Shown here one piece after another: positions 3,252 through 10,223 of a DNA stretch of 44,007 bases. Under the pieces are notes generated by a model that saw nothing but the letters and a program-made list of their open reading frames with translations, made no database searches and had not been told where the DNA came from. Within the stretch, counting starts at the first letter, position 1. Every line of letters starts with the position of its first letter. The stretch comes from a phage. The position numbers were made by a program, and so were the translations under genes. Where the stretch lies: sequence record PX907401.1; one strand, 5' to 3'.

Positions 3252-3279
3252 CGTTCAGTCCTCATGTTGGTGTGCGACC

Positions 3280-3308
3280 AATATAGCCGGGTGCTGGGCT
3301 GAATGCAA
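3280..3308 (-). promoter_or_regulatory. Sigma70-like promoter on the minus strand (-35 TTGCAT, 17-bp spacer, -10 TATATT) carrying the ATTGGTTGCAT motif
   Basis: Minus-strand reading ATTGGTTGCATtcagcccagcacccggcTATATT; about 25 nt upstream of the ATG at 3251. Confidence 0.5.
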
Positions 3309-3449
3309 CCAATATTAATCACGCGCATGAAAAAGTTGATCGCTATCAGCTGTGACTGCATTTTTCACTACGCATAATGCATTGGTTGCCGAGTTCATCC
3401 GCGACCGCACTTCGCATCATGCTGCCGTGTATTTTGCGATCCACGGATT

Positions 3450-6100: not shown

Positions 6101-6430
6101 TTACTTAGAAGTTTTATTATTGCGTACCCAGGAGCGCACTGTGCTCTGATTAATTCCGGTCAACTCGGCAATCATCGCCCAAGATTTGCCCTCGGCGCGC
6201 AAACGGATAACCTGCTTTTTGTATTCTTCCATTTCTTCATTGTGTTTTTGCAGCTTGCTTGCTGCTGTACCGTTGAGCAATTCCAGCCTGGAGCGTAATT
6301 CTTTTTCGACACTGCGCAGTCGTTCGATTTCAAATAACACCACCCCCACGGCATCGGTATAAGCCCATGACCGGCTTGTCTCACTGCAAACAGTCTTCGT
6401 TAACATTTCGATTGCGTCGTTTACATTCAT
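6101..6430 (-). CDS. Small DNA-binding protein with C-terminal helix-turn-helix (putative transcriptional regulator)
   Basis: 109 aa; coiled-coil-like N-terminus; C-terminal KSWAMIAELTGINQSTVRSWVRN resembles an HTH; GAGGG 8 nt upstream of the ATG. Confidence 0.6.
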   Translation of the reverse strand: MNVNDAIEMLTKTVCSETSRSWAYTDAVGVVLFEIERLRSVEKELRSRLELLNGTAASKLQKHNEEMEEYKKQVIRLRAEGKSWAMIAELTGINQSTVRSWVRNNKTSK

Positions 6431-6560
6431 TGCTCTGCCCTCAGTTGGTTAATGACCAACGAAACTACACCCAAAACTGCACGGTGTCAAATCCTTTTGA
6501 TATTGAAACGGGCGCGCACGCGTGTAATAATAATTCTCGTCTCATTGTCTCTTATTGGTT

Positions 6561-6593
6561 AGCGCCGTCGCATTTTGCCTCGGCGCTTTTTTT
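6561..6593 (+). terminator. Terminator-like hairpin plus T-run immediately upstream of the early promoter
   Basis: AGCGCCG-loop-CGGCGCT followed by TTTTTTTG. Confidence 0.4.
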
Positions 6594-6604
6594 GAAATTA
6601 GTTG

Positions 6605-6634
6605 TTGACACCCATCCTGCAACCAATCTATCAT
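6605..6634 (+). promoter_or_regulatory. Early promoter, sigma70-like (-35 TTGACA, 18-bp spacer, -10 TATCAT)
   Basis: Perfect TTGACA at 6605-6610; GCAACCAAT motif lies within the spacer; about 60 nt upstream of the first plus-strand gene; a second perfect TTGACA on the minus strand at 6485-6490 faces the HTH gene. Confidence 0.55.
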
Positions 6635-6694
6635 TCACTCCGTAGACAGGGCATACCGCCCTGACACCTAAACTTAACCAATCGGAGATACACC

Positions 6695-7126
6695 ATGTTT
6701 GAACAAATCGTAAACCTGATTACTCGCGGCGTAGTAGCGCTGGAAACCATCGCTAAGTATTATGAAACCGTTGGCGCTGCCGTTGGTAAGCAGGAAGACA
6801 AGAAGCCGTCTAAGGCCAAAAAAGAAGTCGTAGAAGATGACGACGATGAAGAAGCCGAAGACGAAAAACCGGCTAAAGCTAAAAAAGCACCGGCGAAAGG
6901 CAAAGGGAAGAAAGATGCCGATCCGCTGGCAGAGATGCGCGACGAGATCAAGCAGTACGCCGCGATTATCGCCGGTGGCGATGACGACGATGCTAACGAC
7001 GAATTTGACGACCTGCTGGAAGCGTTCGAGATCAAATCAATCGCTAAGCTGGAAGACGACGACGTCGAAGACTTCCACAAAGATTTAAAAGAAATCGTCG
7101 AGACTTATTTCGAACTGGAAGACTAA
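6695..7126 (+). CDS. Highly acidic early protein (143 aa) with lysine-rich insert; DNA-mimic or anti-restriction candidate
   Basis: GGAGA RBS 6 nt upstream; runs of D/E (EDDDDEEAEDE, GGDDDDANDEFDD, EDDDVEDF) flanking KAKKAPAKGKGKK. Confidence 0.75.
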   Translation: MFEQIVNLITRGVVALETIAKYYETVGAAVGKQEDKKPSKAKKEVVEDDDDEEAEDEKPAKAKKAPAKGKGKKDADPLAEMRDEIKQYAAIIAGGDDDDANDEFDDLLEAFEIKSIAKLEDDDVEDFHKDLKEIVETYFELED

Positions 7127-7130
7127 TATC

Positions 7131-7256
7131 ATGGACTATGAAATGAGAATCATGCTCGATTTCATAGCAGAAAATTGGGCGGCATTCACCGCCTTCTGCG
7201 AAGAAAGAGGCGACGACCCGGACGAGGTTTATAAACAACTCGGCGGTGAAGATTAA
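7131..7256 (+). CDS. Small hypothetical protein (41 aa), not in the ORF track
   Basis: ATG at 7131, MDYEMRIMLDFIAENWAAFTAFCEERGDDPDEVYKQLGGED; followed by a terminator. Confidence 0.35.
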   Translation: MDYEMRIMLDFIAENWAAFTAFCEERGDDPDEVYKQLGGED

Positions 7257-7264
7257 TATTATCC

Positions 7265-7291
7265 GGCCCGCATATTAGCGGGCCTCTTTTT
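7265..7291 (+). terminator. Rho-independent terminator
   Basis: GGCCCGC-ATATTA-GCGGGCC followed by TCTTTTT. Confidence 0.65.
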
Positions 7292-7304
7292 AGAGGACGA
7301 GACA

Positions 7305-7556: not shown

Positions 7557-7745
7557 ATGGCTATATTCTTTGTTTTATTTCGTTGCCGTATCACCGGCGA
7601 CGAGCAACCGGAAATTGTTATGAATCAAAACTGGAATTGCTGCTGGATGCAAGCCCGAGGACTGGCGGCTACCAAGAACAATGCCGCTAAGCGGGCCAAT
7701 GTTGAACACGATTATTACATTGCTCAGTTTACAAGGGTGGAATAA
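7557..7745 (+). CDS. Hypothetical protein (62 aa)
   Basis: Start overlaps the upstream stop (TAAATGG); tightly packed operon. Confidence 0.4.
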   Translation: MAIFFVLFRCRITGDEQPEIVMNQNWNCCWMQARGLAATKNNAAKRANVEHDYYIAQFTRVE

Positions 7746-9175
7746 TGGCGATTAAACCAAAACGTAAGACGCAATCCGGTAGCAATACCGAACACTCATT
7801 ACTCGGGCCGTCCGGTGCTAAAAAATGGATGGGTTGCCCTGCCGCTCTGGTGGTAGAAAAAGATATCCCAAACGAATCCGGGCAAGCCGCGATTAACGGT
7901 ACGAGTATGCACACCGTATCGGAGGTGGTGCTAAACCGCATTATCGCCGGTGAGAAGCTGATAACCGCGAAGACGCATAAAGGGTGCTACGTCGAGAACG
8001 AAGGCAAGGGGCCAGTAAAGGCACACCCTAAAGCACCGAAAGGCGGCGTACTGGTCAACGACGACATGGTGAAACAGTGCGACGCGTACATCGACCACTG
8101 GCGACCGCTCCTCGAAGTGGCGGAGTTTGTCCAGCTTGAGATGCGCGCCGATCTCACCCGCGTCCTACACTCTGGCTTCGAGATCGACGGCAACCGGGTT
8201 AAGACGTTCGGCACTGCGGATATGGTCATGGTCATGAAGAAGACCGACGGCACGTACATGCTGATTGTTGGCGACCTGAAGACGGGGCGGCATAAGGTCG
8301 AGGCGAAAGAAAACAAACAGCTTATGCTGTATGCGCTCGGCCTGCTGCGCAAGCTGAAAACTATGTACGACATTACGACCGTGCGCCTGGTTATCTTCCA
8401 GCCGTATTGCGGCGGGGCGTCGGAGTGGGATATTTCAGTGGAAGCCCTGGAGATATTCGCGAAGTTTGCGTCCAAGCGTGCAATCGCCGCCCTGGAAGCG
8501 TACGCACGCGGCAAAAAGGGACTCACCCGCGCCGACTTCAGACCGAGCGTTGATGCGTGCCAGTGGTGCAGATTTGCGGACCAGTGCAGCGTCCGGGCGA
8601 AGGCCGCAATCGACACGATGACACCGCCAACGGCAACCGACGAAGACCTGGGCGACGACGTGAGCGTGGCTACCGAGGAAGAATGCGCCAATCACGACCG
8701 CAATATGGCCCGCGAAGCCCGGAAGGCGGCCCGACGTGCGAAGCGTGGTAAGAAAGAAGCGGCCCCCGGCGCTATGAGCGCGGCGGAACTGCGCAAGGCT
8801 TATGAAGGCCTTGATGCGATGCGCCAGCACATCAAGGCTATCGAGTCCGCGGTATTCAAGGCCGTAATGGCTGGTGATGGCGAATCGCTGGGCCTCAAGA
8901 TGGTTGCCGGTAAGGAAGGAATCCGCAAGTGGGCGGACGAGAGCGAAGTGATTGAAATCTTCACGAAGGCCCGGATCAAGCGCGATGTGATGTACAAAGA
9001 AACATTACTCAGTCCTACGGATGCCGAGAAGGTACTGAAGGACGAGAAGCCGAAAGTGTGGGCCAAATTGTGTGATAAAATAACGCGCGCACCGGCCAAA
9101 CCGGTATTAGCACCCATTGACGACCCGCGCCCTGCGTGGTCTGAAGCTACTGACGAGGACTTAAGCAATGAATAA
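7745..9175 (+). CDS. PD-(D/E)XK-family exonuclease (Cas4/DUF2800-like) with C-terminal Cys cluster
   Basis: 476 aa; N-terminal HSLLGPSGAKKWMGCP; core VGDLKTGRHKVEAKENKQLMLYALGL (D..K and Q..Y motifs); CQWCRFADQC cysteine cluster. Confidence 0.8.
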   Translation: MAIKPKRKTQSGSNTEHSLLGPSGAKKWMGCPAALVVEKDIPNESGQAAINGTSMHTVSEVVLNRIIAGEKLITAKTHKGCYVENEGKGPVKAHPKAPKGGVLVNDDMVKQCDAYIDHWRPLLEVAEFVQLEMRADLTRVLHSGFEIDGNRVKTFGTADMVMVMKKTDGTYMLIVGDLKTGRHKVEAKENKQLMLYALGLLRKLKTMYDITTVRLVIFQPYCGGASEWDISVEALEIFAKFASKRAIAALEAYARGKKGLTRADFRPSVDACQWCRFADQCSVRAKAAIDTMTPPTATDEDLGDDVSVATEEECANHDRNMAREARKAARRAKRGKKEAAPGAMSAAELRKAYEGLDAMRQHIKAIESAVFKAVMAGDGESLGLKMVAGKEGIRKWADESEVIEIFTKARIKRDVMYKETLLSPTDAEKVLKDEKPKVWAKLCDKITRAPAKPVLAPIDDPRPAWSEATDEDLSNE

Positions 9176-9410: not shown

Positions 9411-9500
9411 CCGCTTAGGCGCAACCAAGTAGATTATCAACCAAGCCGGACGGGGTGGCTCACAATAACCCCGATACATGTGAAAATGAGGAATTGGAAA

Positions 9501-10223
9501 ATGACTAAAGTCAACCTGAAAAATGTGCGCGTATGTTTCCTGAAAATTTGGGAACGTGATACCCCTAAACAGGATGGACAAAAACCGGCATACCGCGCCG
9601 TGATTCTTCTTGATAAAGAAGATCCGCAGGTGGACAAAGTGGAAGCGGCAGCACGCGCAGTGCTCACCGACAAGCTGAAATCCGAGAAGAATGCCGATAA
9701 GTGGATGGACCGCCACTACGCCCAGGATTCTAAGGAATGTGCAGTTCGCGACGGCGACGAGCGCGACGAAGTGACCGAAGAATTCGAAGGCATGTTGTAC
9801 ATCAACGCCAAGTCGTTCAAACAGCCTATCATTCAAACGTCACTCGGCGAGAAGCAGACTGAACAGGGTCTGACCATCGACGGCGACGAGATTGAAGGCC
9901 AGGAGATCTACTCCGGTTGTTATTGCAACGTGTCCCTTGATATTTGGGCGTGGAACAATACCAACGGCAAGGGTCTCGGGGCGGGCTTGCTGGGCCTGCG
10001 ATTCCGTGAAGACGGCGAAGCCTTCGGCGGTGGCGGGTCTTCTTGCTCCGATGAAGACCTGGACAACGACGACGAAGACGAAGCACCGCGCAAGGCTAAG
10101 AAGTCAAAACGTCGTGATGACGATGAGGAAGATGAGAAACCTCGCAAACGTCGTAAGCCACGCGATGACGAAGATGAGGACGACGACGAAGACGAAGCAC
10201 CACGTAAACGTCGCCGCCGTTAA
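9501..10223 (+). CDS. Putative ssDNA-binding protein (DUF2815-like) with repetitive mixed-charge C-terminal tail
   Basis: GAGGA 8 nt upstream of the ATG at 9501 (ORF frame opens at GTG 9480); N-terminus MTKVNLKNVRVCF...; tail DEDEAPRKAKKSKRRDDDEEDEKPRKRRKPRDDEDEDDDEDEAPRKRRRR; sits between exonuclease and polymerase. Confidence 0.6.
   Translation: MTKVNLKNVRVCFLKIWERDTPKQDGQKPAYRAVILLDKEDPQVDKVEAAARAVLTDKLKSEKNADKWMDRHYAQDSKECAVRDGDERDEVTEEFEGMLYINAKSFKQPIIQTSLGEKQTEQGLTIDGDEIEGQEIYSGCYCNVSLDIWAWNNTNGKGLGAGLLGLRFREDGEAFGGGGSSCSDEDLDNDDEDEAPRKAKKSKRRDDDEEDEKPRKRRKPRDDEDEDDDEDEAPRKRRRR

Follow-up and report, generated by a model that had tools for sequence, protein, structure and literature searches.

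The window analysed here is a 44,007-nucleotide (nt) stretch of phage DNA (sequence record PX907401.1), taken at its full length, and the element under study is a gene at 6695-7126 that encodes a highly acidic protein. The region shares 92-97% identity with coliphages of the Dhillonvirus group, among them TH11, Zumzum, JLBYU37, slur05, welsh, and EP23, and the window represents a Dhillonvirus-type Escherichia coli siphophage. As read from the sequence, the open reading frame (ORF) runs on the plus strand from an ATG at 6695 to a TAA stop ending at 7126, and its product of 143 amino acids (aa) contains 22 Asp, 21 Glu, 20 Lys, and 2 Arg, that is, 43 Asp and Glu against 22 Lys and Arg. Its composition gives an isoelectric point (pI) of 4.33 and a net charge of -21, and among the 65 non-overlapping ORFs of the window it ranks top both for Asp plus Glu (30.1%) and for charged residues (45.5%), confirming the exceptional acidity claimed in a preliminary description of the sequence. 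Acidic runs are found at aa 47-57 (EDDDDEEAEDE), 96-106 (DDDDANDEFDD), and 120-126 (EDDDVED), and a Lys-rich stretch, KPAKAKKAPAKGKGKK, at aa 58-73. A sigma70 consensus scan of positions 1-40000 placed the strongest promoter-like site, with a perfect TTGACA, directly upstream of the gene, which heads the rightward DNA-metabolism operon, again as the preliminary description had it. The gene is regarded as real, given that it has 105 close homologs, on contigs of approximately 44-45 kb, and that its ortholog in Dhillonvirus EE09 has been detected by mass spectrometry in infected cells. The features of the locus are collected in Table 1.

Table 1. Positions of the features discussed, numbered from the first letter of the window.
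Feature	Position	Strand	Basis
Acidic protein gene, PHROG 3127 member	6695-7126	+	ORF and profile match
N-terminal helix, aa 1-26	6695-6772	+	AlphaFold2 and conservation table
Disordered linker with alternating charge blocks, aa 27-75	6773-6919	+	Predicted local distance difference test (pLDDT) below 50
Acidic C-terminal three-helix bundle, aa 76-143	6920-7123	+	AlphaFold2 helices and conservation
Shine-Dalgarno GGAG, 7 nt 5' of the ATG	6684-6687	+	Direct sequence reading; kept in relatives
Rightward promoter-like site TTGACA-18-TATCAT, drives the acidic gene	6605-6634	+	Consensus score 11/12, top site
Leftward promoter-like site TTGACA-17-TAGTTT, facing the helix-turn-helix (HTH) regulator and primase-helicase operon	6462-6490	-	Pattern match
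Promoter-like TTGAAA-17-AATAAT with extended TG (6503-6531), then terminator hairpin (6561-6587) and T-run	6503-6594	+	Scan score 10/12
Divergent 109-aa HTH protein	6101-6430	-	Pfam HTH_23, HTH_28, Sigma70_r4_2
41-aa acidic ORF, PHROG 15754 (function unknown), co-transcribed with the acidic gene	7131-7256	+	Net charge -9, pI 4.05
Intrinsic-terminator-like hairpin GGCCCGC...GCGGGCC with T-run, ends the two-gene unit	7265-7292	+	7 G-C pairs
DUF2800 / PD-(D/E)XK (Cas4-like) exonuclease, most constant downstream neighbour	7745-9175	+	ORF; annotation of relatives; Pfam DUF2800 on distant-locus equivalents
Gp2.5-like / DUF2815 ssDNA-binding protein	9480-10223	+	ORF; annotation of the Zumzum ortholog

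The acidic protein matches PHROG 3127, a family of unknown function (E = 1.1e-45, 157 bits), as do all 45 of the diverse family members tested. A profile search of 1.84 billion representatives returned 46 clusters (50% clustering), and tblastn located the family in 251 phage records, including Salmonella Jerseyviruses, Kagunaviruses, phiEap-2, and RP180. Foldseek against BFVD recovered gp46 of Edwardsiella phage eiAU and the '13.88 kDa late protein' of Salmonella phage MB78 (UniProt Q9T1Z8; 30% identity, E = 5.5e-4) among the family members, and otherwise only weak matches to uncharacterised proteins. The MB78 protein, like the members of PHROG 3127, is a true homolog, and none of these carries an assigned function; for the 'late protein' label, from which the name in some annotations derives, no explanatory paper was found in the accessible literature. 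Searches of Pfam, NCBIfam, and PDB sequences gave nothing above threshold for the window protein, and 45 relatives likewise had no Pfam or NCBIfam hit that passed threshold. Sub-threshold matches to DUF6669 (E = 0.04), ribosomal protein S20 (E = 0.5), and IglI (E = 0.017) are driven by composition and were rejected. The sequence family is already present in databases as 'hypothetical protein', with orthologs that are 95-97% identical, and the gene is not new. What is new is that the family is tripartite, that it reaches far beyond Dhillonvirus, that it is fixed beside DUF2800 and PolA, and that its charged repeat is variable and dispensable.

An alignment of the 105 close homologs separates the protein into a near-invariant segment (aa 1-31), a length-variable segment (aa ~32-75), and a second near-invariant segment that is acidic (aa 76-143), and this tripartite design is retained in distant family members at 24-40% identity. 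AlphaFold2 was run twice with different alignments, the second more diverse, and the two runs give an agreeing picture: an N-terminal helix at aa 2-26 or 2-30 (pLDDT ~61-68), disorder at aa 26-74, and a bundle of helices at aa 77-94, 98-110, and 121-139 (pLDDT 80-92), the model being all-helical with zero strands. Comparison with solved structures gave nothing beyond generic three-helix bundles. The N-terminal helix is the best conserved segment of the family, with R11, A15, and E17 invariant. Hydrophobic residues at positions 1, 2, 5, 6, 8, 9, 13, 14, 15, 19, and 20 cover most of its faces, suggesting that it is buried in an oligomer or against a partner, and it probably serves oligomerisation or partner binding. 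A beta-clamp-binding motif in MFEQIVNLI was examined by eye and discarded on account of an unconserved Q, a wrong spacing, and the location of the segment inside a helix.

The linker comprises a mixed basic block (aa 32-43), the acidic block EVVEDDDDEEAEDE, and the basic block KPAKAKKAPAKGKGKK. It represents the allele with a single copy of an 81-bp (27-aa) tandem repeat that most relatives carry in two copies and that has a repeat_region annotation in phage welsh. Homolog lengths range from 115 to 239 aa, the top values reflecting over-extended start calls. Near-linkerless natural alleles are encoded on two full-length phage contigs (P0089, 122 aa, and P0094, 124 aa), and a third homolog nearly without the charged linker (P0098, 115 aa) is known solely from a 3.7-kb contig. 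The preliminary description had singled out a lysine-rich insert flanked by acidic runs. The Lys-rich stretch is present, but it is not an insert; rather, it is one block of a variable basic and acidic linker and is mostly absent in the natural variants, and since both it and the adjoining Asp/Glu run lie in this variable, naturally deleted linker, they are the dispensable part of the protein. The segregation of charges within the linker has a z-score of 4.65, a value reached by none of 500 shuffles, and with both predicted disorder and charge segregation above that of shuffles the linker is a blocky polyampholyte. Blockiness beyond chance (p <= 0.05) is found in 37 of 45 family members, with a median z of 3.5, and the net charge of the linker is near zero in most members (range -12 to +5). 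The protein does not fit the histone-like, AT-hook, or H1-like Lys-Ala-Pro DNA-binding proteins, given that no net basic region is kept across the family and that the Lys block is absent in natural variants.

The C-terminal domain has a net charge of -19 in the window protein (segment aa 79-143) and, across the 33 family members examined, is acidic without exception (net -4 to -21), with conserved Asp or Glu at positions 96, 98, 99, 102, 106, 121-123, and 140 and 142. An EF-hand in GGDDDDAND was considered by eye and dismissed for its unfit spacing. Three metagenomic homologs (P0115, P0116, and P0121) carry the C-terminal three-helix domain in tandem duplicate. A sub-clade (proteins P0148-P0154; loci L011 and L012) retains both the C-terminal domain and its place upstream of DUF2800 and PolA and has a different N-terminal segment (MSLKLTVEGTTAEELLSNLIAAANAMSAG...); its basic blocks are arginine- and glycine-rich (GRRGGRK, KGRRSRG).

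The genomic surroundings proved the most informative part of the analysis. In Zumzum, a leftward unit contains the genes for HTH, primase-helicase, small proteins, lysis, packaging, head, and tail, and a rightward unit contains the acidic gene, small ORFs, the PD-(D/E)XK exonuclease, a Gp2.5-like ssDNA-binding/annealing protein, PolA, helicase, methyltransferases, ligase, and polynucleotide kinase. The acidic gene lies directly, or one to three small ORFs, upstream of DUF2800 and then PolA in Dhillonvirus, Jerseyvirus, phiEap-2, and five metagenomic phages. In Jerseyvirus Ent1, homolog gp41 comes first, is transcribed away from an HTH gene, and is followed by a terminator, the exonuclease, a DUF2800-associated small ORF, a DUF2815 ssDNA-binding protein (SSB), and PolA; phiEap-2 has the same layout with an HNH gene inserted upstream. 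In the five metagenomic phages, whose homologs are only 24-40% identical, the acidic gene is directly or one to two small ORFs upstream of DUF2800, again followed by PolA. In three of these five (L004, L011, and L012) the gene stands in mid-operon, behind a DEAD-box helicase; all three are without the DUF2815 SSB, and one has a different primase type (DUF5906). Given that the synteny holds at these mid-operon loci, the constant neighbours are the DUF2800 nuclease and PolA and not the promoter. Being the first gene is therefore a feature of the lineage, whereas adjacency to the nuclease and polymerase is a feature of the family. The acidic gene is a core gene kept down to approximately 25% identity and not a variable accessory gene.

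Charge blocks also occur in the products of neighbouring genes. The C-terminal ~55 aa of the window SSB consist of the successive blocks DEDLDNDDEDE, APRKAKKSKRR, DDDEEDE, KPRKRRKPR, DDEDEDDDEDE, and APRKRRRR; these three repeats of acidic and basic blocks, ending in RKRRRR, differ from the tail of T7 gp2.5, which is purely acidic. The Jerseyvirus SSB ends in a similar manner (DDLEDDEDETPRRERRRNR). The exonuclease carries acidic and basic blocks like those of the SSB tail, and the two proteins share an [ST]-[DE]-[DE]-D-L motif, of which the exonuclease has one internal and one C-terminal copy and which is also present in Ent1. These shared blocks and motif do not prove electrostatic cross-talk within the module but are compatible with it. 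The acidic protein was itself considered as a Gp2.5-like/DUF2815 SSB and rejected, since its all-helical model contains no OB-fold core; the real member of that family is the product of 9480-10223.

Proteomics of cells infected with Dhillonvirus EE09 for 25 min revealed just four proteins of the phage: CDS29, CDS40, CDS56, and CDS61 (PMC10673088). CDS56 (EE09_56) is the ortholog of the acidic gene, with an over-extended start call, and CDS61 (EE09_61) holds the SSB position. The acidic protein is therefore made and, together with SSB, belongs to the phage proteins that are most easily detected.

Upstream of the gene, the pattern TTGACA-N16-18-TANNNT has just two matches in the whole window, the rightward site and the leftward site, the latter lying 32 nt upstream of the start of the HTH ORF at 6430. 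These two divergent sites place the acidic gene in the genome's central control region, from which transcription diverges, at the head of the rightward operon. The promoter geometry suggests that it may be expressed early, as the preliminary description had it, although the MB78 homolog bears the name of a 'late protein'. The two perfect-TTGACA promoters stand back to back in one intergenic region and each starts TTGACACC. Relatives keep the -35 hexamer of the rightward site but differ in the -10 (TATCAT, TATTAT, or TAATAT). The divergent gene at 6101-6430 encodes a protein whose sole recognised domain is a C-terminal HTH and which is annotated as 'transposase' or 'resolvase' in relatives; given its location at the divergent promoter region, it is more likely to be a control-region regulator than a transposase. 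Between the two promoters, the hairpin of the 6503-6594 cassette (fold -16.7 kcal/mol, z = -2.55) begins approximately 30 nt after the promoter-like site, and the cassette is near-invariant across four Dhillonviruses. It may give rise to a transcript of ~55-60 nt ending just before the promoter of the acidic gene and might act as a small RNA or as an insulator of transcription; Rfam returned no match for either the cassette or the leader of the acidic gene.

Many Dhillonviruses, such as welsh, EE09, and Bas15, carry an insertion of ~137 nt in the 5' leader of the acidic gene, at a site corresponding to 6641-6694 of the window, 3265-3400 of locus L001, and the equivalents in L009 and L013; the window and Zumzum have a short hairpin instead. 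The RNA of the insertion shows no unusual structure (z = +0.68). Since the insertion adds an upstream in-frame ATG, the database entries of 207-239 aa (EE09_56, bas15_0048, and Opt212 gp20) are probably over-extended at the N-terminus. Downstream, the 41-aa ORF is nearer to T7 gp5.9 in size and charge than is the 143-aa protein, and small ORFs occupy the equivalent position in phiEap-2 and metagenomic contig L003. Jerseyvirus Ent1 has an annotated terminator at the place equivalent to 7265-7292.

The preliminary description had proposed that the protein is a DNA mimic directed against restriction or a factor for host takeover. Like T7 Ocr and ArdA, the protein is dense in Asp and Glu, predicted to be helical, and encoded by the first gene behind a strong host-type promoter. 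Structure prediction did yield an acidic helical bundle, but not a match to the folds of Ocr, ArdA, or Gam, and searches of Pfam, NCBIfam, PDB sequences, and Foldseek found no similarity to Ocr or ArdA in sequence or fold. Published plating data bear on the question through BASEL phage Bas15 (PaulFeyerabend), which has an intact two-repeat ortholog; the comparison is of a phage carrying the gene and not of an isogenic deletion, and is indirect for the role of the gene. Bas15 has an efficiency of plating (EOP) of 0.006-0.014 on the type I system EcoCFT_I, an approximately 100-fold restriction, ~1e-4 on EcoRI and < 1e-6 on EcoRV (both type II), and ~1e-5 on the type III system EcoCFT_II (BASEL plating data). 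The S5 table, the other columns of which agree with counts made here, gives this phage a single EcoCFT_I site, and our own count gives it one EcoKI site. According to the BASEL authors, Dhillonviruses are, relative to Queuovirinae, sensitive to restriction of types I and II. Bas15 is thus restricted in spite of its intact ortholog, which comes close to refuting the anti-restriction proposal, and together with the sensitivity of Dhillonviruses makes an Ocr-like role very unlikely. The gene is, in addition, fixed in the replication module as a core gene and not a variable gene of the leading end, and the Asp/Glu and Lys runs that were highlighted are dispensable. The acidic C-terminal bundle could still mimic DNA electrostatically with some other target.

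Several further observations concern phage defence. The known Dhillonvirus factor Anti-Tmn is ORF35, which has a beta-sheet domain and is a different gene. Surveys of escape mutants of SECphi4, SECphi6, and SECphi18 name SSB, DNA polymerase, and a 56-aa protein and not the acidic gene; further defence literature gave nothing at the level of the gene, and the text on retron Ec48 is silent on triggering by Dhillonvirus. The EcoKI site (AAC N6 GTGC) is entirely absent from both strands of the window, as it is from BASEL phage Bas14, which could reflect selection against type I sites.

The preferred interpretation, to which a probability of roughly 0.35 is assigned, is that the acidic protein is a conserved, abundant, multivalent acidic adaptor or regulator, accessory to the phage replication/recombination module, and not an anti-defence gene. 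The N-terminal helix would provide multivalency or anchoring, the charge-blocked linker would act as a flexible tether that can vary freely in length, and the acidic bundle would dock on an enzyme of the module itself, at a basic surface that probably binds DNA. The candidates for docking are, in order, the DUF2800 exonuclease, PolA, and the SSB tail at its basic end. In this way, the protein would recruit, hold together, or restrain the enzymes of the module at replicating or recombining phage DNA. The tripartite architecture and its conservation, the synteny, and the abundance in infected cells are shown; that the protein oligomerises, which partner it has, and whether it recruits or restrains are inferred.

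Several points weigh against this interpretation. The predicted template modelling score of the AlphaFold2 models is 0.43-0.44, the N-terminal helix not being confidently docked even with the more diverse alignment. Oligomerisation through that helix is suggested by its hydrophobic pattern only, and the partners proposed are candidates. The three natural variants that nearly lack the charged linker indicate that the charge blocks are not essential. Some of the conserved acidity (D96, D98, and D121-123) lies at helix N-caps and may therefore be partly structural and not part of an interface. Lastly, the synteny could merely reflect the inheritance of the module as one block.

Among known systems, the acidic protein fits loosely with the acidic accessories of phage DNA metabolism that act electrostatically, and it matches no characterised family. 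Hub elements of replisomes, such as the acidic C-terminal tails of T7 gp2.5 and gp4 and the linker plus tip of E. coli SSB, bind basic surfaces of replication enzymes. The acidic protein resembles them in having a disordered tether to an acidic element, in belonging to a module with a gp2.5-like SSB and a PolA-type polymerase, and in being as abundant as the SSB. It differs in that the acidic element is predicted to be a folded three-helix bundle on a separate protein without an OB fold and that the linker is blocky and not purely acidic. The colicin DNase immunity proteins Im7 and Im9 and barstar, which are small acidic helical inhibitors of nucleases, are also among the closest systems. The ribosomal stalk protein bL12 is alike in architecture only, with an N-terminal helical element for oligomerisation or anchoring, a flexible hinge rich in Ala, Lys, and Glu, and multiple acidic globular heads; its sequence, fold, and process are unrelated, and it serves only to illustrate a design of anchored and tethered acidic heads.

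The alternative that survives best, although it is unlikely, gives the protein a function analogous to that of lambda Gam or T7 gp5.9: its acidic bundle would imitate DNA and block a host nuclease (RecBCD) or some other DNA-binding protein of the host, thereby protecting the phage's linear intermediates of replication and recombination. The lambda gam and T7 5.9 genes, which encode RecBCD inhibitors, each lie just upstream of a phage exonuclease gene. The acidic gene likewise precedes an exonuclease and a Gp2.5-like annealing protein, an analogy of position that is not a defining criterion, and stands first in the operon behind a strong promoter, to be expressed with DNA-metabolism genes. Like Gam and gp5.9, its product is acidic and helical, with a C-terminal domain that is strongly and consistently acidic; the family occurs in enterobacterial phages, and the annotation of a close relative contains no other recognisable RecBCD inhibitor. 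The protein is, however, larger than these inhibitors and tripartite, and its conserved buried-type hydrophobic N-terminal helix and long, charge-blocked disordered linker are left unexplained by such a role. Neither in sequence, by searches of Pfam, NCBIfam, and PDB sequences, nor in fold does it resemble Gam, gp5.9, or Abc2, and the neighbouring 41-aa acidic ORF matches gp5.9 in size equally well or better. P2 Old is thought to respond to the inhibition of RecBCD by lambda, yet Dhillonviruses Bas14-16 are barely affected by it (EOP 0.2-1 in most replicates, lowest 0.07), which is a proxy and constitutes weak evidence against such a role.

A rather less probable alternative is that the protein organises replication foci, with Lys/Arg blocks binding nucleic acid, acidic blocks and the acidic head binding basic partners, and co-assembly with the SSB tail producing a compartment or condensate; in a weaker version, it would be a histone-like DNA-binding protein. 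Consistent with this, the blocky polyampholyte linker is conserved as a property and not as a sequence, and K/T-R-G-K/R or KRGRKP motifs are frequent in its basic blocks and, by eye only, resemble AT-hooks. The SSB and exonuclease of the same operon carry acidic and basic blocks, the protein is abundant alongside SSB, and the duplication of the C-terminal domain in three homologs raises valency. Conversely, the protein as a whole has a net charge of -21, the linker is close to neutral and falls to -12 in some members, so that DNA binding is not obviously favoured, and near-linkerless variants exist in nature. Slightly more doubtful still is an organising scaffold in which oligomers formed by the N-terminal helix would display several acidic heads on charge-blocked tethers and co-assemble with the SSB tail and the DUF2800 nuclease through complementary blocks, concentrating PolA, nuclease, and SSB on phage DNA. 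Were this so, the polymorphism in linker repeat number would tune the properties of the assembly, and the protein would represent a core replication factor of a new class, common to Dhillonvirus, Guernseyvirinae, and related siphophages.

Transcriptional host takeover, in which an acidic mimic would, for example, fill the DNA channel of the host RNA polymerase or titrate H-NS or HU, is improbable; it would fit an acidic, promoter-proximal product of a phage that is without an RNA polymerase of its own and must therefore redirect the host enzyme, and the acidic three-helix bundle may be reminiscent of sigma70 region 1.1. The lead idea of the preliminary description, an Ocr- or ArdA-like mimic acting on restriction-modification or BREX, is the least credible, being largely refuted for the systems tested by the plating of Bas15. 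Relatives carry methyltransferases and a Lar-like gene instead, and a core distribution with fixed synteny is atypical for anti-restriction genes. The remaining probability falls to something else.

Should the Gam-like alternative be true, the family would be a new family of RecBCD inhibitors. Dhillonviruses, Jerseyviruses, and Kagunaviruses belong to the coliphages and Salmonella phages that are isolated most frequently, and they find use in therapy and biocontrol work; the module of primase-helicase, DUF2800 nuclease, Gp2.5-like SSB, and PolA is widespread, with the acidic protein apparently a constant and abundant member. Identification of its partner would fill a gap in a common replication system and would show whether a charge-blocked, repeat-variable linker has a function; it would also end the listing of this gene as an anti-restriction candidate for its composition alone. 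With its function still a matter of inference, the acidic protein makes a good candidate for a core component so far missing from a very common replication module.

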